Shown one piece after another: positions 48,016 to 64,000 of a DNA stretch of 64,000 nt; position 1 is the stretch's first letter; every line of letters begins with the position of its first letter. The notes beneath the pieces were generated by a model that saw only the letters and a program-made list of their open reading frames with translations, was not told the origin of the DNA and made no database searches. The DNA is from Bacillota bacterium (lineage in GTDB: Bacteria > Bacillota > UBA994): positions 64,050-128,049 of the forward strand of contig WSXW01000008.1 in NCBI GenBank assembly GCA_009773495.1. Direction: 5' to 3'. The translations under genes and the position numbers were made by a program.

Positions 48016-48537
48016 ATGTTTAAGAAGATTCTTGTTTTTACAGTGTTGTTCTGTCTGATAGCGCAGGGTGCGCTAGCTTCATCCGGGCAGGCTCTGACAG
48101 AAGAAGGCCTCGCAACCCTCAAGGCTAAACTCCTCGAACGCCACGAGGCCCTAGTAGCCAAGGCAGAAGAGGTCCTTGCTAATAAGGACAACCTGCTAGA
48201 GTACATTAAGACTAAGGCTGATGAGTCGCAGGCTAAGGCTCTGGAGCTAGCGCAACAAAGGGCGGCTGAGGCTACAGATCAGGAACTCGCGGCCAAGTGG
48301 CTCAACAAGGCCAACGCTAAGCAAGAGTATAGGACAGCTCACATTGAGAAGAACGCCGACAAGATGGCGGAGAACATGCTTAAGCGCGCCGAAGCAGTTT
48401 TAGAAAATGCGGCCGAGATTCGTACTAAAATCGAAGCGGCAGAGAATTTAGAGGAGCTCCGCGAATTGCGCCCTGACCGTGGTATTAAACGCCCCATGAT
48501 GCGTCTTAAGGGTATCCTAAAGAGGTTCGGGAGATAA
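48016..48537 (+). CDS. secreted alpha-helical/coiled-coil hypothetical protein
   Basis: Signal peptide MFKKILVFTVLFCLIAQGALA followed by A/E/K-rich heptad-like sequence. RBS aaaggag. Confidence 0.5.
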   Translation: MFKKILVFTVLFCLIAQGALASSGQALTEEGLATLKAKLLERHEALVAKAEEVLANKDNLLEYIKTKADESQAKALELAQQRAAEATDQELAAKWLNKANAKQEYRTAHIEKNADKMAENMLKRAEAVLENAAEIRTKIEAAENLEELRELRPDRGIKRPMMRLKGILKRFGR

Positions 48538-48543
48538 AGAGTA

Positions 48544-48700
48544 GCCCGATTGTAGGGGCATCATGCGCCCGATTGTAGGGGCACAACATGTTGTGCCCGC
48601 CAGGCGTTGTAGGGTTGCGCCCAGGGCACGATGCCGTGCCCCTACACCAAACCCCGATTGTAGGGGCACAACATGTTGTGCCCTGGGTCGAACTCCCACC
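48544..48700 (+). repeat. array of palindromic repeat elements (unit about CCCGATTGTAGGGGCACAACATGTTGTGCCC; 2 full + 1 truncated + degenerate/inverted partial copies)
   Basis: Copies at 48544-48560, 48567-48598 and 48652-48690. The perfect 20-bp palindrome gggcacaacatgttgtgccc occurs twice. An inverted partial copy gtgcccctacaccaa lies at about 48635. Confidence 0.75.
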
Positions 48701-48719
48701 CCTAGAGAGAGGGATTATA

Positions 48720-49396
48720 TGCGTAGTATTCACGTGGTGGAGGATGAGCAAAACGTACGCGAGCTTTTGGGCCGTTACCTTGAGCACGAGGGCTACAAGG
48801 TCTATTTGCATGCCAGCGGCGAAGGCGTGCTTGAAGCCTTGCAGGTCAATGGTGCTGACTTAATAGTCTTAGATATTATGCTGCCGGGTATTGATGGCCT
48901 AGAGCTATGCAAACGCATCCGGGCCAAATACGAGACGCCGATTATTTTTGTTTCTGCTCGCAGCGAGGAATTTGACCGAATCCTAGGGATTGAGCTGGGC
49001 GGCGATGATTACTTGGTCAAACCCTTTAGCCCCCGCGAGCTCTTGGCGCGCATACGGGCTATCTTTCGCCGCGTAGACCAACAGCAGTCAGTGGCGGTGA
49101 GCGGGCTCAAACCCTTTAAGGATCTCACTATTGATTCAGCCGCAAGGCTAGTGCGCTGTGGACAGTATACTCTAGATTTCACAAACAAAGAGTTTGAACT
49201 CCTGCTCTACCTGATAGATAATGTCGGCCGCGCTTTTACACGTGAGCAAATGGTTACTGCGGTGTGGGGCTATGCCTATGTAGGCGATAGCCGTTCGGTA
49301 GATGATCTAATTCGCCGCATCCGCAAGAAATTAGACGGCGTATCGACTATCGAGATTAAGACTGTATGGGGCTATGGGTATCGGATTGATGGGTGA
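48720..49396 (+). CDS. OmpR-family response regulator (receiver + winged-helix)
   Basis: MRSIHVVEDEQNVRELL...LDIMLPGIDGLELC...winged-helix C-terminus. RBS gagagaggg. The ORF track extension from 48563 reads through the repeats. Confidence 0.85.
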
Positions 49397-54426: not shown

Positions 54427-55890
54427 TTATCCCAGCAAATAAAGGAACATAAACGCTGGGATTCTGAACATCCTGCTCGAATTAGCAAAAGGCCCATAGT
54501 CTCGGCTAGACTTAGTAACAAAGAACCCTTGGCATTCGGGCCGCAGCTCTAAAAACTCTAGCAGCGGGTCGCTGCCGAGTATATCTGGCCTGTCGCGGTA
54601 TTTCACCTGGGCGGCCACTAGTGCTCTGCCGGGTACAAAGGCCACGGTACTTAGCTCGCGGCTCGTCCTGATTGACTTCCAGTGCCCTAGGGTAGGCCGC
54701 AGTCTCTCGAAATGCCCTGCAAGGTGAGAAAGCACCGCTGCTTCTACTAGGCTCTCTAGATAGCTGGCATCAGTAAGGGCATCTTCCCATTTAAGCAATA
54801 CGGCATTGCGTAAGGCTGCATCGGCAACGTAAACCTTGGCCCTAGATTTCGGGATGCGGTTGCCCTTATGGTCAAGAGGGGGTGAGGTAAGGGTGAGGTA
54901 GGCGCGTTCTAAGCTCTGAAGGTGGCTATTAAGCGTGATGCGAGAGATATTAAGCTCGCGCGCCACGCTATCTTGCCCAATGAGTTGCCCGGAGTTGAGG
55001 CTGAGATATACAAAGACCTTCTCGAGGTCTAGTACGTTTCGTACTCCAAAGAGTGTCGCCATATCGCGCTTGAGGACTCTGTCTAGGCAGTCTTCGCGTA
55101 GGAGCTGCTGGGCTAGCTGCGTATCGTTGAGTGTAGCTGTCTCGGGGAAGCCGCCTACTAGTAGGTAACGCGAAAAGAAGGGTTCAAGCGCCGAAAAAAG
55201 GGCTAGGGCTTGTTGTTGCTGCTCTCGCGGCAGGCTAGGTAGGGTAGACAAACTAATCCCGCCGGGCAGGGGTAGGGGCCCCTGCCCGCGCACCCCCAAG
55301 TACTCGTAGAAAGAGAGGGTGGGTACGACTATCTCTACCCTGCGCCCTGTGCCCGTGTCTCCCTCCCCCGAGCCAACCGTAGCCGCTACGGAGCCTGTCG
55401 CCACCACTTTGTATTGGGGTGAGTAATCAGTGAGGTACTTGAGCCAGGTGCTCCAGTCTTCAGCATGATTTATCTCATCCAGCAATAGCAGCGCTGACTC
55501 GCTGCCGCCGAGGATGTTGGCACGGTAGATCTCCATAATGCGATTCATGGGTAGCATCTTGAGCATAGGATGATCGAAGGATATGTATAGTACTTGGTGG
55601 GCTTGCAGACTTGTCTGTATTGTCTCCTGAGCGAGCTGATACAGGATGGTGGTCTTACCCACCCGGCGTGCACCGGTTAGTAGCACTGTCCGGCGAATAG
55701 AATCGTTGTTAAGCCATGTGAAGGCCCTAACAAAGGCGGAGCGACGGAAGGACCTGGCGCATTCGGTGCTCACAACGCCTGTCTGCCACCAAGGGTTAAA
55801 CCCGCGCAGCACCTGCAGTACTTGAGTGTCTTCAAGAAAACTCATGGAAATAACCCTCCTATACAACATTTTAAGATTATTGTATACCAT
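54427..55890 (-). CDS. AAA-family ATPase with DUF4143 C-terminal domain (intact paralog of the 3096-3973 pseudogene)
   Basis: Walker A (GARRVGKTT) and Walker B (LLLDEIN), with the DUF4143 tail. Convergent with the radical SAM gene; their stops are 1 nt apart. Confidence 0.7.
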   Translation of the reverse strand: MVYNNLKMLYRRVISMSFLEDTQVLQVLRGFNPWWQTGVVSTECARSFRRSAFVRAFTWLNNDSIRRTVLLTGARRVGKTTILYQLAQETIQTSLQAHQVLYISFDHPMLKMLPMNRIMEIYRANILGGSESALLLLDEINHAEDWSTWLKYLTDYSPQYKVVATGSVAATVGSGEGDTGTGRRVEIVVPTLSFYEYLGVRGQGPLPLPGGISLSTLPSLPREQQQQALALFSALEPFFSRYLLVGGFPETATLNDTQLAQQLLREDCLDRVLKRDMATLFGVRNVLDLEKVFVYLSLNSGQLIGQDSVARELNISRITLNSHLQSLERAYLTLTSPPLDHKGNRIPKSRAKVYVADAALRNAVLLKWEDALTDASYLESLVEAAVLSHLAGHFERLRPTLGHWKSIRTSRELSTVAFVPGRALVAAQVKYRDRPDILGSDPLLEFLELRPECQGFFVTKSSRDYGPFANSSRMFRIPAFMFLYLLG

Positions 55891-58974: not shown

Positions 58975-59083
58975 GAGTCACTGATCAGAGCCCCGATTTA
59001 CACTGATAAGTGGTCTATCATACAAGGGGCACAACTGCGTTGCCCTCCATTCATATCCACATTTCTAACTGAGGTGTTTACCA

Positions 59084-60148
59084 ATGCTTGAAAAATTAAG
59101 ATTAATTAAAAACCGTTACGAGCTGCTTACAGATCTCGTCAGTGACCCTAACGTAATTGCCAGACAAAACGAATGGCGTGCTTACATTAAAGAGCAGGCC
59201 AGCTTAACTACCCTTGTTAATGCTTTTAACAGGTACGAGAAGACTCTGCAGGAGCATGAACAGTCTAAGCAGGCCCTATCGGGGCAGAATGACCCCGATT
59301 ATAGGGAGATGCTAGAGCTTGAGGTAGATGAACTGGAAGAACAAATCGAGAAGATAGAAGAAGAGATAAAGGTTCTGCTGCTCCCCAAAGATCCTAAAGA
59401 CGACAAGAACGTGATCTTAGAAGTGCGTGCCGGCACAGGCGGCAACGAAGCCGCTTTGTTTGCTGCGGATTTATTCCGCATGTACACCCGTTACGCGGAG
59501 CGCCAAGGTTGGAAGACCGAGGTTATGTCCGCATCACCTAGCGACTTGGGTGGCTATAGAGAAGTAATCTTTATGGTTGAGGGCAAGGGCGCCTATAGCA
59601 AGCTAAAGTTTGAGAGTGGCGCTCACCGCGTGCAACGCGTTCCGCTGACTGAAGCTAGCGGGCGTATTCATACTTCTACCGCCACTGTGGCGGTTCTGCC
59701 CGAAGCCGAAGAGGTAGACATCGAGATCGATCAAAATGACCTCCGTATCGATACTTTCTGCTCCAGTGGCCCAGGTGGGCAGTCTGTAAATACAACTTAC
59801 TCCGCTGTACGTCTGACACACATACCCTCGGGTGTAGTGGTGAATATGCAGGATGAAAAGTCGCAGATAAAGAATCGTGAGAAGGCCATGCGCGTACTCC
59901 GTGCTAGGCTGTTCGACTTGGAGCAAGCCAAGCGCGATGCCGAGATGTCCGAAAACCGCCGCGGACAAGTGGGTACTGGTGATCGCAGTGAGCGTATTCG
60001 TACTTTTAATTTTTCGCAGAGTCGTGTATCGGATCATCGCATTAGCTTTACTACTCACCGATTAGAGGCGATTCTTGACGGTGACCTCAACGAACTTATT
60101 GATGCTCTGACGACTGCTGACCAGATGGATAAACTGCAACGGGCGTGA
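59084..60148 (+). CDS. prfA: peptide chain release factor 1
   Basis: PxT-region and GGQ motif ([11 protein letters not shown]). 354 aa. Confidence 0.9.
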
Positions 60149-60227
60149 TATGCATTATTTGGGGAGATACGTTCCTTGTTCCTCGTAACGAAGAGCTAGG
60201 AACGAGGAGCTAGGAACGAGGTTTACC

Positions 60228-61163
60228 ATGTCCCTTCATTCTTTATGGCAGTGGGGTACTGCGGAGCTTGCAGCTGCGGGCCTTGAGGACTCCCGGTGGC
60301 AAGCAGAGCTACTCCTGCGGGGTATTGTCGAGGTGACTCGGGCTAAGTTTATGACCTACCCGGAGTTACAAGTAACGCATCTCGACACTGAGCGCTTTCG
60401 GGACGCAATCCGTAGGCGCTCTTTAGGTATGCCCGTGCAGTATATCCTTGGCAAGCAGGAGTTTTATGGGCGGGAGTTTATAGTGACCCCCGATGTATTA
60501 ATCCCCAGACCTGAGACGGAGGTGCTGGTGGAGGAAGTGTTGAGTAAGATGTTGCCTTTGTGTAGGGGCACGACACTGTCGTGCCCCTACACAAAGGCAA
60601 GCGGTTCTCAGTTTCCAGATCGCTTACGCCTCCTCGACCTGTGCACAGGTTCTGGTTGCATCGGTCTAACCCTGGCTGCAGAACTACCGCAGGCTAGGGT
60701 GGTGGCGACGGATATTTCGCTGCAGGCGTTAGGGGTAGCTAAACAGAATGCACATAAAGTAGGTGTGGCCAACCGGGTGGAGTTTAAGCAAGGGGACTTG
60801 TGCTCTGCTCTACAAGGTGACATTTTTGATGTTATAGTCTCTAATCCGCCGTATATCGAAACGGCTGCTATACCTACACTAAGTAGGGATGTCCAGAATG
60901 AACCTATTGGAGCCTTAGACGGCGGGGCAGATGGGTTAGAGTTTTATAGGCGTATTGCAGATGGGCTCGGGCAACACCTGGCCCCTGGGGGTCTCGTGGC
61001 GGTAGAAATCGGCCACGGACAGGGCCAAGATGTAATGCAGTTATTCGCCCAGGCTGGGCTTATCGACATAACCCTAATCCTCGACCTAGCAGGCAAAGAA
61101 CGCGTCGTGATGGGGAAAATGCCGAAGGCAGAAGGAGCTTGTACTTTCCCCGTATCAGTGTAA
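60228..61163 (+). CDS. prmC: release factor glutamine N5-methyltransferase PrmC/HemK, with in-frame palindromic-element insertion in the inter-domain linker
   Basis: NPPY motif (VSNPPYIE) and SAM motif LDLCTGSGCIG. The linker is about 17 aa longer than in typical orthologs. Confidence 0.85.
   Translation: MSLHSLWQWGTAELAAAGLEDSRWQAELLLRGIVEVTRAKFMTYPELQVTHLDTERFRDAIRRRSLGMPVQYILGKQEFYGREFIVTPDVLIPRPETEVLVEEVLSKMLPLCRGTTLSCPYTKASGSQFPDRLRLLDLCTGSGCIGLTLAAELPQARVVATDISLQALGVAKQNAHKVGVANRVEFKQGDLCSALQGDIFDVIVSNPPYIETAAIPTLSRDVQNEPIGALDGGADGLEFYRRIADGLGQHLAPGGLVAVEIGHGQGQDVMQLFAQAGLIDITLILDLAGKERVVMGKMPKAEGACTFPVSV
60555..60597 (+). repeat. perfect 43-bp palindrome (two 21-nt arms around a central C) of the TGTAGGGGCAC...GTGCCCCTACA family, in-frame inside prmC
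   Basis: cctttgtgtaggggcacgaca-c-tgtcgtgcccctacacaaagg encodes ...LPLCRGTTLSCPYTKA... Related copies occur at 48544-48700. Confidence 0.8.
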
Positions 61164-61364
61164 ATCAGCTTTAAATCAGGTCTCGTTCAGTGGTACCGTT
61201 TCCCTCCCTCGTCCTCCCGGATGCCCGCTAATTTTCCCCTACATTTTCCCCCCAATATACGTTGACATATTAGACCGGTGGGCGTACAATTAACCCGAGG
61301 AAAATACTCGGCTTTTTTATAATCTTAATACTGAGTAATTTAGTCGGATATAAGGGGGTATTTT

Positions 61365-61781
61365 ATGAGACTTTCAACAAAAGGCCAATACGCGGTCCGA
61401 GCTATGGTTGTGGTAGCATTACACGACAGCACGGGTCCGGTGCCGTTACGCTATATAGCTGAGATCGAGGACATCTCAGAACAGTACTTAGAACAGATTT
61501 TTATGGATTTGCGCAAAGATGATTTGGTTACCGGTCTGAGAGGTGCGCGGGGGGGCTACGTTCTGAATAGGCCTGCTGAGGAGATCACTTCTGGTGACAT
61601 TGTCCGTGCTGTAGAGGGTCCGATTGTACTAGTCGATTGCGACCATGATGGCGCCTGTCAAAGGGCCCATGTGTGCGCTACTAGGGCGCTGTGGGCGAGG
61701 GTATCCGAGAGTATGAGTCAAGTGTTAGATGGAACTACCTTGGCTGATTTAGCTAATTGGGCTCGAGAGAAGAGCCGCTAA
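61365..61781 (+). CDS. Rrf2-family transcriptional regulator (IscR/CymR-like, Cys-cluster ligands present)
   Basis: MRLSTKGQYAVRAMV with a winged-helix and a C-terminal CDHDGACQRAHVC cysteine set. Confidence 0.8.
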   Translation: MRLSTKGQYAVRAMVVVALHDSTGPVPLRYIAEIEDISEQYLEQIFMDLRKDDLVTGLRGARGGYVLNRPAEEITSGDIVRAVEGPIVLVDCDHDGACQRAHVCATRALWARVSESMSQVLDGTTLADLANWAREKSR

Positions 61782-61796
61782 AGGAGGTTGATTTTA

Positions 61797-62978
61797 ATGC
61801 GTAGGATTTATTTAGATCACGCAGCTACTACCCCGGTTAACCCCGAAGTAATTGCTGCCATGCTGCCATACTTTCATAATAACTTTGGCAACCCCTCTAG
61901 TGTTCATGGTTTTGGTCGCGAAGCCCGCAAGGCTGTAGATGAGGCCCGCGAAAAAGTAGCCAAGGCCATAGGGGCTGACGTGCGGGAGATAGTGTTTACC
62001 TCTGGGGGTACAGAAGCTGATAATCTTGCTATTCAAGGAATAGTGCTGGCTAAGCAAGACAAAGGTAAGCACATCGTTACCAGTGCCATTGAGCATCATG
62101 CTGTCATTGATACCTGTGGGTTTTTAGGGACCCAGGGGTTTGAAGTTACTTATCTACCGGTGGATGAGTACGGCCTAGTTACACCAGCGGACGTTCTAGC
62201 TGCCATCCGTCCGGACACCATTCTTATAACTATAATGCATGCGAACAACGAGATGGGCACGGTTCAGCCTATTGCGGAGATTGGTAAGATCGCTAGAGCC
62301 CATGGTATTACTTTTCATACCGATGCAGTACAGTCCATCGGGAGTATCCCAGTTGATGTCAATGAGCTTAACGTCGATTTGCTATCACTCTCGGCTCATA
62401 AATTTTATGGTCCTAAGGGTATCGGCGTCCTGTATATACGCAAGGGCACTAAAATTAAACCCGTAACTCACGGGGGCGGCCAGGAGAGAAAGTATAGGCC
62501 GGGTACCGAAAACCATGCTAGCATCGTCGGTCTGGGTAAGGCCATTGAGCTAGCCACGACCAACTTGGTAGAGAAGCAAAGCAAAATCCGGATGCTGCGC
62601 CATAGACTGATAGCCGGACTGCTTGCTATACCTGAGGTTAAGCTAAACGGGCATCCGGAGCAGCGCTTGTCCGGCAATGTTAACGTCAGCATTCGCTATG
62701 TAGAAGGGGAGTCTCTGATTCTTAGCCTGGACATGAAGGGTGTAGCCGTCTCTAGCGGATCGGCCTGCACATCGGGATCGCTCGATCCCTCTCATGTACT
62801 GTTAGCAATGGGGCTCAGTCATGAGGAAGCCCATGGCAGCCTGAGGTTAACTCTAGGACATGACAATACAGAAGAAGAAGTTGATTACGTGTTGAGCGTA
62901 TTGCCGGAGATAATAGAGCGGCTGAGAAAAATGTCACCGCTGTACAGCCAGAGGTACAGTATCCCCGTCAGGACATAA
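61797..62978 (+). CDS. nifS: cysteine desulfurase (NifS/IscS class V aminotransferase)
   Basis: MRRIYLDHAATT with a PLP-Lys context (SLSAHKFYGPKG) and active-site Cys (SSGSAC). RBS aaaggagg. The ORF track starts 9 nt earlier. Confidence 0.85.
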   Translation: MRRIYLDHAATTPVNPEVIAAMLPYFHNNFGNPSSVHGFGREARKAVDEAREKVAKAIGADVREIVFTSGGTEADNLAIQGIVLAKQDKGKHIVTSAIEHHAVIDTCGFLGTQGFEVTYLPVDEYGLVTPADVLAAIRPDTILITIMHANNEMGTVQPIAEIGKIARAHGITFHTDAVQSIGSIPVDVNELNVDLLSLSAHKFYGPKGIGVLYIRKGTKIKPVTHGGGQERKYRPGTENHASIVGLGKAIELATTNLVEKQSKIRMLRHRLIAGLLAIPEVKLNGHPEQRLSGNVNVSIRYVEGESLILSLDMKGVAVSSGSACTSGSLDPSHVLLAMGLSHEEAHGSLRLTLGHDNTEEEVDYVLSVLPEIIERLRKMSPLYSQRYSIPVRT

Positions 62979-63016
62979 CAGCGGAGAGCGGAAAGTGCTA
63001 AAAGGAGGACTTAATA

Positions 63017-63406
63017 ATGAGTGTATATAACGAGAAGGTTTTGGAGCATTTTCAGAACCCCCGCAACGTAGGCACGATGGAAAATGCCGACGGGGTGGGC
63101 GAAGTAGGTAACATTAACTGCGGTGATATTATGCGCATCTATATTAAGGTAGATGGTGACGAGCGCATTACGGATATTAAGTTCCAGACCTTTGGGTGTG
63201 GAGCGGCAGTCGCTACTAGTAGCATGGTTACGGAGTTAGCCATAGGTAAGACGGTTGATGAGGCTTTAATCATGAACAACAAAGATGTAGCTGAGTCCTT
63301 GGGTGGGCTTCCGCCTATCAAAATGCACTGTAGCAACTTAGCTGCAGATGCTCTCCACGCTGCAGTAAAGAATTATCGGGAGAAAAGGGCATTACATCAA
63401 CGGTAG
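63017..63406 (+). CDS. nifU: Fe-S cluster assembly scaffold protein NifU/IscU
   Basis: 129 aa with GCGDIMRIY, FQTFGCGAA and MHCSNLA conserved Cys motifs. RBS aaaggagg. Confidence 0.85.
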   Translation: MSVYNEKVLEHFQNPRNVGTMENADGVGEVGNINCGDIMRIYIKVDGDERITDIKFQTFGCGAAVATSSMVTELAIGKTVDEALIMNNKDVAESLGGLPPIKMHCSNLAADALHAAVKNYREKRALHQR

Positions 63407-64000
63407 TACACTAGCTTCCCTAATGTTCTTCAATCCTAACAACTGCATGGTAAGCCTCTCGGCGCCGATGGCGAAACCGCCATGTGGTGGCATGCCGTAT
63501 CTAAACACCTGTAGGTAGAATTCATATTTCTCTGGGGTCAGGCCTCGCTCGCGCATACTATCGAGCAACAAATTTAGCTGGTGCTGTCTGAGCCCGCCTG
63601 TGGTAATCTCTTGGCCCCGGAATATTAGGTCAAATGACTCCGTTAGGCCTGCGTTTTTAACCCCAGGCAAGGCATAAAAGGGGCGAATATGCCGGGGGTA
63701 GCTATGCAAGAAGGCCGCCGGCACGCCATGCTCCCGCTCTGCCCACTGACAGATAAGCCGCTCTCCCTCAGGGTCGATGTTGCCGTCCTCGCTGACTTTA
63801 CCATGCTCCCTATGTATTATTCCTAGGGCTTCACCTAGGGGGAGACGCGGAATTGTAGGTAGCTCTGGCGCTATTGTTATTGTACTAAAGCGCTCATGGA
63901 GATCTTGGAGAAGTGAACGCAGAAAGCTTTCTTCTAGGTCCATGAGGACGTTAACATCCTCTACAAAGCCCATTTCGATGTCTAGGCTAATAAATTCGTT
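63392..64000 (-). CDS. class II aminoacyl-tRNA synthetase catalytic-core protein of the Asp/Asn type (archaeal-type AspRS or AsnA-like paralog), 3' part only (N-terminus beyond window end)
   Basis: Motif 3 region YGMPPHGGFAIGAERLTMQLLGLKNIRE. Overlaps the nifU 3' end by 15 nt on the opposite strand. Confidence 0.55.
   Translation of the reverse strand, partial: NEFISLDIEMGFVEDVNVLMDLEESFLRSLLQDLHERFSTITIAPELPTIPRLPLGEALGIIHREHGKVSEDGNIDPEGERLICQWAEREHGVPAAFLHSYPRHIRPFYALPGVKNAGLTESFDLIFRGQEITTGGLRQHQLNLLLDSMRERGLTPEKYEFYLQVFRYGMPPHGGFAIGAERLTMQLLGLKNIREASVLPLM

Follow-up and report, generated by a model that had tools for sequence, protein, structure and literature searches.

How does a long perfect palindrome come to lie in-frame within prmC, the gene for the release-factor N5-glutamine methyltransferase, and does it serve any purpose there? 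The question is raised by a stretch of 64,000 nucleotides (nt) from a Bacillota bacterium (GenBank assembly GCA_009773495.1, contig WSXW01000008.1, positions 64,050 to 128,049; hereafter the window), for which a preliminary description made from the sequence alone had reported a perfect 43-bp palindromic element translated as part of PrmC. The element was found to correspond to a repetitive extragenic palindrome (REP) of the GTAG type, with a GGGCAC...GTGCCC stem linked to subclass 2.4 of the REP-associated tyrosine transposases (TnpA_REP or RAYT). We consider it likely that this REP became fixed inside prmC as an in-frame passenger and that it reached its present form by way of an inverted dimer, like that still found in a relative (locus L002), followed by template switching.

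The 43-bp sequence was present verbatim at 60555 to 60597, but the perfect palindrome is 49 bp long. A repeat finder gave 24-nt arms (60552 to 60575 and 60577 to 60600) that are 100% complementary around a single C at 60576. This is by far the longest inverted repeat of the window, the runner-up among perfect ones having 15-nt arms. Folding of the palindrome as RNA gave −49.9 kcal/mol, compared with −21.8 ± 3.1 for shuffled sequences (z = −9), and folding as DNA gave −30.5 kcal/mol. The element is translated in-frame, as had been claimed: the open reading frame (ORF) is intact, there is no stop codon in the insert, and the codons within the palindrome specify PrmC residues L109 to A124, LPLCRGTTLSCPYTKA. 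The palindrome is no assembly artefact, because four independent assemblies carry the sequence, namely the window, L001 (Logan SRR8863439), L218 (ENA ERZ27300247) and L219 (Logan SRR6213607). L001 is 100% identical to the window over 2718 bp, and the palindromes of L218 and L219 differ by one base. In a Peptococcaceae metagenome-assembled genome (MAG) at NCBI, the contigs are broken exactly inside the palindrome, with P0122 ending in ...CRGT and P0121 beginning with TVSCPY..., and prmC is split into two partial genes (P0121 and P0122; MBS3950413.1 and MBS3950832.1). Contig ends of this kind are the usual behavior of assemblers at perfect palindromes. In practice, MAG contigs are broken within genes by perfect REP palindromes, with partial gene calls and partial database proteins as the result.

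REPs of the GTAG superfamily are recognized by a GTAG tetranucleotide that stands at the foot of a G+C-rich hairpin (Di Nocera et al. 2013, PMC3733652). By the criteria of Quentin et al. (2018, PMC6006769), GT[AG]G lies 0 to 2 nt from the foot of a hairpin with a paired basal stem of 7 to 20 nt and a short loop, and a 3′ end reading C[TC]AC makes a "double foot." The same study describes two REP types for TnpA_REP subclass 2.4, including long REPs with three G-C pairs at the bottom of the stem, and the double foot. The prmC element was compared with this description feature by feature. Its GTAG (60562 to 60565) directly adjoins the stem GGGCACGACA/TGTCGTGCCC, which is 10 nt long, has one unpaired base (a 3-nt loop when folded) and has three G-C pairs at its base, while a mirrored CTAC (60587 to 60590) provides the reverse-complement foot. 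Units at 48575 and 48660, in an intergenic array of the window, are built alike. On these sequence features, the prmC element is assigned to the GTAG-tagged, double-foot REPs of the TnpA_REP/RAYT subclass 2.4 type.

The preliminary description had set the family apart from the Rickettsia palindromic elements (RPEs), which is correct insofar as RPEs are CGTC-tagged or longer, but the seemingly separate family that it proposed is the double-foot GTAG REP already described (PMC6006769). Intragenic, in-frame GTAG REPs were catalogued as early as 2013 (PMC3733652); in-frame REP insertions are thus known, and neither a new kind of element nor a new mechanism is shown here. GGGGCAC strings were absent from the supplementary data searched for the 2013 survey (Di Nocera et al., PMC3733652), so that the prmC REP could not be matched to any of its numbered families, GTAG-1 to GTAG-24. 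No paper joining RPE and hemK was found in the literature searched.

Several other element classes were considered and rejected. The window contains a single hairpin rather than the doublet of a REPIN, which is present at the same site in L002. The GTAG tag and the size of 29 to 49 bp do not fit a Rickettsia RPE or another CGTC-tagged REP. A miniature inverted-repeat transposable element (70 to 300 bp) has terminal inverted repeats of 15 to 30 bp, a non-palindromic core and a target-site duplication, whereas all 49 bp of the prmC element are palindrome and no direct repeat flanks them. An intrinsic terminator was rejected on the lack of a T-run (the tail reads GCGGTTCTCAG) and a silent terminator scan.

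The recurrence of the core in an intergenic array at 48.5 kb, also part of the preliminary description, was readily reproduced. Exact copies of GTAGGGGCAC occur at 48575 (+), 48636 (−) and 48660 (+), with a one-mismatch copy at 48552 (Table 1). The REPs of the 64 kb amount to this one array (three full and two partial units), a degenerate copy at 59024 and the prmC copy. Family breadth was examined by scanning one genome per GTDB species with the pattern TGTAGGGGCAC-N6-12-GTGCCC, which matched at least 120 stretches. The matches listed came from Acidobacteriota, Chloroflexota, Cyanobacteria, Desulfobacterota, Planctomycetota, Omnitrophota, Armatimonadota and other phyla. Gap lengths among them were far from uniform (8 in 91 hits and 9 in 36 hits), and the inner stems covaried (GGCATGCC, GATATATC, AGCATGCT and others). 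The double foot extended outward by at least 4 nt in 49 of the 136 strand-wise matches listed, about one-third ending in CTAC. A scan of JGI metagenomes for the exact 25-mer of the subfamily, GTAGGGGCACGACANTGTCGTGCCC, returned 86 copies in 85 stretches. Over both scans, the family core was present in more than 200 loci across many phyla. One perfect copy of this bacterial-type REP was seen in L088, a Methanosarcinales archaeon MAG, on a contig with a coverage of 0.39, and may be a binning contaminant rather than an archaeal REP.

ORFs within 600 bp of the 120 GTDB stretches listed were clustered, and no gene family recurred beside the REP copies apart from RAYT-like ORFs that contain the REP. 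Inverted REP pairs in L029, L078 and L102 flank ordinary genes (GatB, QueA and pilins), not transposases. Where long ORFs overlapped REP matches in GC-rich genomes, most lacked a Pfam domain and were regarded as spurious. An in-frame REP was found inside Y1/RAYT-like ORFs of L050, L063, L069, L091, L174 and L200, with fragments in L033 and L078, and lies between the HUH motif (..VVMPNHVHGI..) and the Tyr motif (..WQRNYYEH..). These ORFs matched PF01797 with E values of 5e-7 to 1e-6 and NF047646 ("REP-associated tyrosine transposase") with 59 to 65 bits, under the cutoff of 80. A REP inside the transposase gene has already been described as a "unique feature of subclass 2.4" (Quentin et al. 2018, PMC6006769), and the in-frame copies in RAYT-like genes point to the same subclass for the GTAG-GGGCAC family. 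In the RAYT-like gene of L091, the REP site has grown into a repeat array, and in that of L069, it splits the gene into two frames. The same family also occurs in-frame in unrelated housekeeping genes. One is that for the CCA-adding enzyme of Heteroscytonema crispum (L130:4806-7559, + strand), where the REP lies near residue 614, in the PolyA_pol head domain of a DHH-CBS-CCA-adding enzyme; another is that for a YgiQ-type radical SAM protein in a MAG of candidate division FCPU426 (L076:6539-7999, + strand), where it lies near residue 270, in the Radical_SAM_N domain.

The effect of the insert on PrmC was judged from an alignment of 22 PrmC proteins, which confirmed the insertion and included insert-free orthologs. 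The NPPY and GxGxG motifs and other invariant columns are kept despite the insert. The gap between the invariant IPRPETE and LDLxTGSG is 37 residues in the window (PRPETE to LDLCTGSG) versus 20 in the insert-free P0008 (64% identical) and P0014 to P0019, in keeping with the roughly 17 extra residues first estimated. The same gap is 30 to 61 residues in other close relatives, and a stretch of 25 residues in the window PrmC corresponds to 5 in E. coli HemK. The same extra residues were not found in relatives without palindromic DNA. An AlphaFold2 model built on the alignment had a mean pLDDT of 92, with low confidence only at residues 114 to 133 and in the C-terminal tail. The linker that joins the N-terminal domain to the methyltransferase domain, where the insert had been placed, is the β-hairpin of residues 76 to 85 in the model. 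REP-encoded residues 109 to 124 cover the end of a helix and a disordered loop, and the insert is therefore outside the interdomain linker. In the Rossmann-type topology of methyltransferases, the N-terminal end of strand β1 faces away from the cofactor and substrate site. It is plausible that extra residues are tolerated at this loop.

Given this variability of the prmC loop, the extra residues might be an ancestral linker that is palindromic by chance, or else an artefact. We regard this as hardly credible. Nothing more than the general variability of the loop favors it, while the core is repeated intergenically within the window and recurs at the many loci found in other phyla, the chance of 24 complementary bases is about 4^-24, and the agreement of independent assemblies argues against an artefact.

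Relatives of the window lineage were informative about how the element arose. In L002, whose PrmC (P0002) is 78% identical to that of the window, an inverted REP dimer with its GTAG feet outward occupies the same prmC site, after the same TTG codon. It consists of a long-loop REP, GTAG-GGGCACAGC...GCTGTGCCC, followed by GGGCACGACAGTGTCGTGCCC-CTAC. The spacer between prfA (the release factor 1 [RF1] gene) and prmC of L002 contains another, almost identical copy of the long unit, 490 bp upstream of the first. An orthologous spacer REP is present in L004 and absent from L008 and the window, a distribution of the kind seen with mobile or unstable repeats. CACTG/CAGTG repeats, similar to the heptamers described below, flank the spacer REP in L002 and L004. 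The left junction (TTG|TGTAGGGG) falls at the same codon in the window and L002, and the right REP unit has the same orientation and frame. When the 57 nt (19 codons) that separate the direct GGGCAC repeats of the L002 dimer are removed, the result is TGTAGGGGCACGACAGTGTCGTGCCCCTAC, which is exactly the core of the window lineage.

The same loop (window 60522 to 60632) holds other in-frame repeats in further relatives, both close and more distant. Heptamers were found in L004:10301-10414 (CCCAGTT, five copies), L009:5295-5471 (TTCACAG, seven copies), L008:1373-1504 (GCTCANN, nine copies), L221:5295-5477 (CCAGCCG, four copies), and L006:401-550 and L010:896-985 (GCTTTCC). As heptamers preserve the frame only in threes, they are odd within a conserved enzyme. 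L006 also has an apparent decayed REP remnant at the loop. In L220:2824-2994, a 48%-identical relative, the loop is a tandem duplication of a 42-nt unit, each with a hairpin GTGAATTTGC...GCAAATTCAC. The prmC loop, as far as sequence comparison goes, gathers short repeats across the clade.

These observations bear on whether the REPs of the window lineage and L002 are independent insertions into a hot-spot loop favored by the single-strand transposase and other repeat-generating processes, an alternative that we find rather unlikely but would give some weight. The cores are identical at 25 of 25 nt between lineages whose proteins are only 78% identical, unrelated repeats occupy the same loop (the heptamers and the palindromic duplication of L220), and the adjoining prfA-prmC spacer is polymorphic for the presence of a REP. 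A further point comes from Additional file 3 of Di Nocera et al. (2013, PMC3733652), which lists a CGTC-1 REP at residues 109 to 117 of R. conorii RC1314, a protein of 524 aa. Judging from residue numbers only, that REP probably corresponds to the same PrmC loop and, if so, would be an independent hit in Rickettsia. RC1314 is of a size that we take to be that of a PrmC/TrmB fusion. Independent insertion would nevertheless have to reproduce the left junction at the same codon and the right unit in the same orientation and frame; moreover, the 57-nt deletion gives an exact match, and one insertion plus a deletion involves fewer events than two insertions at one codon.

The arms of the window palindrome reach 10 nt past the REP unit on either side (TTGCCTTTGT and ACAAAGGCAA). 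Among the 86 JGI copies of the same subfamily, arm lengths were 10 nt in 52, 14 nt in 19 and 11 to 16 nt in the rest, with none over 16 nt; the left arm together with the core (CCTTTGTGTAGGGGCAC-N6-12-GTGCCC) had no match when JGI metagenomes were scanned; and the L002 flanks homologous to the outer arms are not complementary. The arm extension is local on these three counts. Private extensions of a like kind were seen in the L068 and L102 copies. A second feature emerged from L218 and L219, which share 99.8 to 99.94% identity with the window across 13.7 kb. In the block 59042 to 64000 (4959 aligned bases), the window and L218 differ by three single-nucleotide polymorphisms (SNPs), one of which is the center base, C versus G. 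The chance of a SNP at that base with that change is about 5e-4 at about 1.4 SNPs per kb. The center G is also carried by L002, P0123 and P0121, the last from the NCBI MAG. A change of C to G at the sole unpaired base is the exact outcome expected of inversion of a perfect palindrome. In bacterial quasipalindrome mutagenesis and in chloroplast stem-loop inversions, template switching perfects inverted repeats and flips the hairpin center. Both the arm length and the center switch of the prmC palindrome would fit intrastrand template switching at hairpins.

The sequence of events that we favor would then run as follows. A REP of the GGGCAC...GTGCCC family would have inserted in-frame into the prmC loop and become fixed. 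It would have survived by virtue of a loop that tolerates extra residues, as a neutral or nearly neutral passenger and not a functional module; passenger status is suggested because the loop joins the N-terminal end of β1, on the face opposite the S-adenosylmethionine (SAM)/substrate site. The single hairpin may have come from an L002-like inverted dimer through a 57-nt in-frame deletion between the direct GGGCAC repeats. Intrastrand template switching at the hairpin would have copied one flank onto the other, yielding the 24-nt perfect arms, and may also invert the element, which would be visible only as C or G at the center.

Several points weigh against this account. The window lineage and L002 have the same REP core (25 of 25 nt) although their proteins are only 78% identical; recurrent insertion or gene conversion would account for this as well as a single ancestral insertion does, so that the direction from dimer to single hairpin is unproven. 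No RAYT gene was detected in the window or in about 50 kb of the relatives' loci L001 to L011 by phmmer with E. coli RayT and the L050 and L063 proteins as queries. It is from pattern only that we infer template switching, and the center is an exposed loop base at which the C/G difference might have arisen by ordinary transversion. Neutrality is likewise something that we infer, and a perfect RNA stem of 24 bp might influence translation or the stability of the mRNA.

This last point leads to the proposal that the hairpin is selected as an RNA or DNA regulator in the prfA-prmC transcript, where it could be cut by RNase III, make ribosomes pause or block 3′-5′ decay in a way that sets the ratio of RF1 to PrmC. 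The very stable stem, the perfect arms that are longer than the family unit, the identity of the REP core in a lineage with a PrmC just 78% identical and the known effects of REPs on mRNA stability (background in PMC3733652) could all be read in this way. The structure is, however, not conserved, close relatives having heptamers, a REP dimer, a degenerate remnant or nothing at the site. Template switching accounts for the perfect arms without selection, and the lack of a T-run means that there is no intrinsic terminator. No Rfam family was matched at gathering thresholds anywhere in the window, and a window scan gave no support for a terminator or promoter role of the hairpin. We therefore consider a selected regulatory role very improbable; the sequence gives no sign of a role for the hairpin beyond that of a tolerated passenger.

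The prmC REP can be placed among known systems. In its GTAG foot at the hairpin, three basal G-C pairs and mirrored 3′ CTAC, it is like the subclass 2.4 or double-foot GTAG REPs (PMC6006769, PMC3733652), and like GTAG REPs, its family forms intergenic arrays and inverted dimers, occurs in-frame in loops of transposase and unrelated genes and is widely spread phylogenetically. It is unlike those described in its host, a Peptococcaceae-like MAG of the Bacillota (a phylum with no mention in the text of the 2013 survey [PMC3733652]), and in its perfect arms, which extend 10 nt beyond the family unit. The Rickettsia RPE-4 and RPE-6 are CGTC-tagged REPs, and intragenic REPs are also known from Opitutus terrae and other species (Di Nocera et al. 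2013, PMC3733652). With these intragenic REPs and with RPEs, the prmC copy shares the condition of a short palindrome in-frame in a housekeeping gene, adding about 7 to 30 residues, presumably in a permissive loop. It differs from RPEs in its GTAG rather than CGTC tag and unrelated stem; RPE-1, on which Ogata and colleagues reportedly wrote in 2000, is about 100 to 150 bp long. The two inverted REPs of L002, with GTAG feet outward, have the layout of a REPIN or HH dimer (Bertels and Rainey 2011, PMC3116915). REPINs were defined in RAYT groups 2 and 3 of Pseudomonas and Enterobacteria and are extragenic (PMC3116915). The window copy is unlike them, being a single hairpin with no spacer doublet, and is proposed to be the remnant of an L002-like dimer after deletion of its center. 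Template-switch quasipalindrome mutation or hairpin-loop inversion, which would account for the longer perfect arms and the center flip, is a mechanism and not an element family.

Table 1. Coordinates of the prmC palindrome, other REPs, and associated genes and protein regions
Feature	Position	Strand	Basis or remark
49-bp perfect palindrome (24-nt arms, center 60576) in prmC	60552..60600		Repeat finder, folding
29-bp double-foot REP core, GTAG + GGGCACGACA + C + TGTCGTGCCC + CTAC	60562..60590		GTAGGGGCAC matched on both strands
Left outer arm TTGCCTTTGT	60552..60561		Pairs with 60591-60600; outside REP family unit
Right outer arm ACAAAGGCAA	60591..60600		Complement of 60552-60561
Palindrome center base, strain-polymorphic	60576..60576		C in window (Leu117), G in L218/L219 (Val117)
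prmC (release-factor N5-glutamine methyltransferase), intact, carries REP	60228..61163	+	TIGR03534 281 bits, cutoff 199 (NCBIfam)
prfA (RF1), directly upstream of prmC	59084..60148	+	NF001859 525 bits
Degenerate hairpin resembling a REP, GGGGCACAAC TGC GTTGCCC, shortly before prfA	59024..59046	-	
Intergenic REP array like a bacterial interspersed mosaic element (BIME)	48552..48683		Between ORF 48016-48537 (173 aa) and response-regulator gene (ATG 48720)
Array: truncated head	48552-48561		
Array: full unit GTAG-GGGCACAACATGTTGTGCCC	48575-48598		
Array: head fragment GTAGGG	48609-48614		
Array: inverted unit GGGCACGATGCCGTGCCC-CTAC	48624-48645		
Array: second full unit GTAG-GGGCACAACATGTTGTGCCC	48660-48683		
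RAYT-like gene with internal REP	L050:422-964	-	
RAYT-like gene with internal REP	L063:1898-2590	-	
RAYT-like gene with internal REP	L091:3177-4169	-	
RAYT-like gene with internal REP	L069:1701-2562	-	
RAYT-like gene with internal REP	L174:3008-3727	+	
RAYT-like gene with internal REP	L200:763-1395	-	
PrmC helical N-terminal domain	Residues 1-74		AlphaFold2 model
PrmC interdomain β-hairpin	Residues 76-85		AlphaFold2 model
PrmC first helix of methyltransferase domain	Residues 95-113		AlphaFold2 model
PrmC loop	Residues 114-133		AlphaFold2 model; blocks 111-130 pLDDT 49-59
PrmC strand β1, running into GxGxG SAM motif	Residues 134-138		AlphaFold2 model

Other repeats were observed in the window. 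At the degenerate REP upstream of prfA, the segment 59007 to 59041 is replaced between 99.9%-identical strains, L218:8726-8814 having an 89-bp block with CGCCTAG heptamers. A 14-nt unit, AACGAGGAGCTAGG, is repeated 2.5 times at 60187 to 60221, directly before the prmC start codon, and duplicates a Shine-Dalgarno-like GGAG. A G+C-rich perfect hairpin at 55264 to 55287, GGGCAGGGG-TAGGGG-CCCCTGCCC, has a GTAGGGG string in its loop and may belong to a different REP-like family. The longest mechanical ORF of the response-regulator gene (48563 to 49396) starts within the REP array and continues across it in-frame (MRPIVGAQHVVPARRCRV...); the true start is likely the ATG at 48720. An ORF that starts inside a REP array is a trap for gene callers.

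A bolder proposal is that the helix-to-β1 loop of prmC in this Peptococcaceae-like clade is a true hot spot for hairpin elements and heptamers and that the palindrome is actively flipping and self-perfecting. We think this quite unlikely; if true, the palindrome would serve as a natural reporter with which the targets chosen by a RAYT and the rates of template-switch inversion could be tracked in a bacterium that is uncultured, and the stem might in addition have been recruited for tuning the expression of prfA-prmC. The prmC REP itself provides a clean, well-controlled case of a REP tolerated in a conserved enzyme that modifies a translation factor. Because insert-free orthologs, a relative with a dimer and near-identical strains are all available, the proposed path can be traced step by step, from insertion through central deletion to the perfection of the arms and the flip. 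The finding also adds a Bacillota lineage to those in which subclass 2.4-type REPs are documented.

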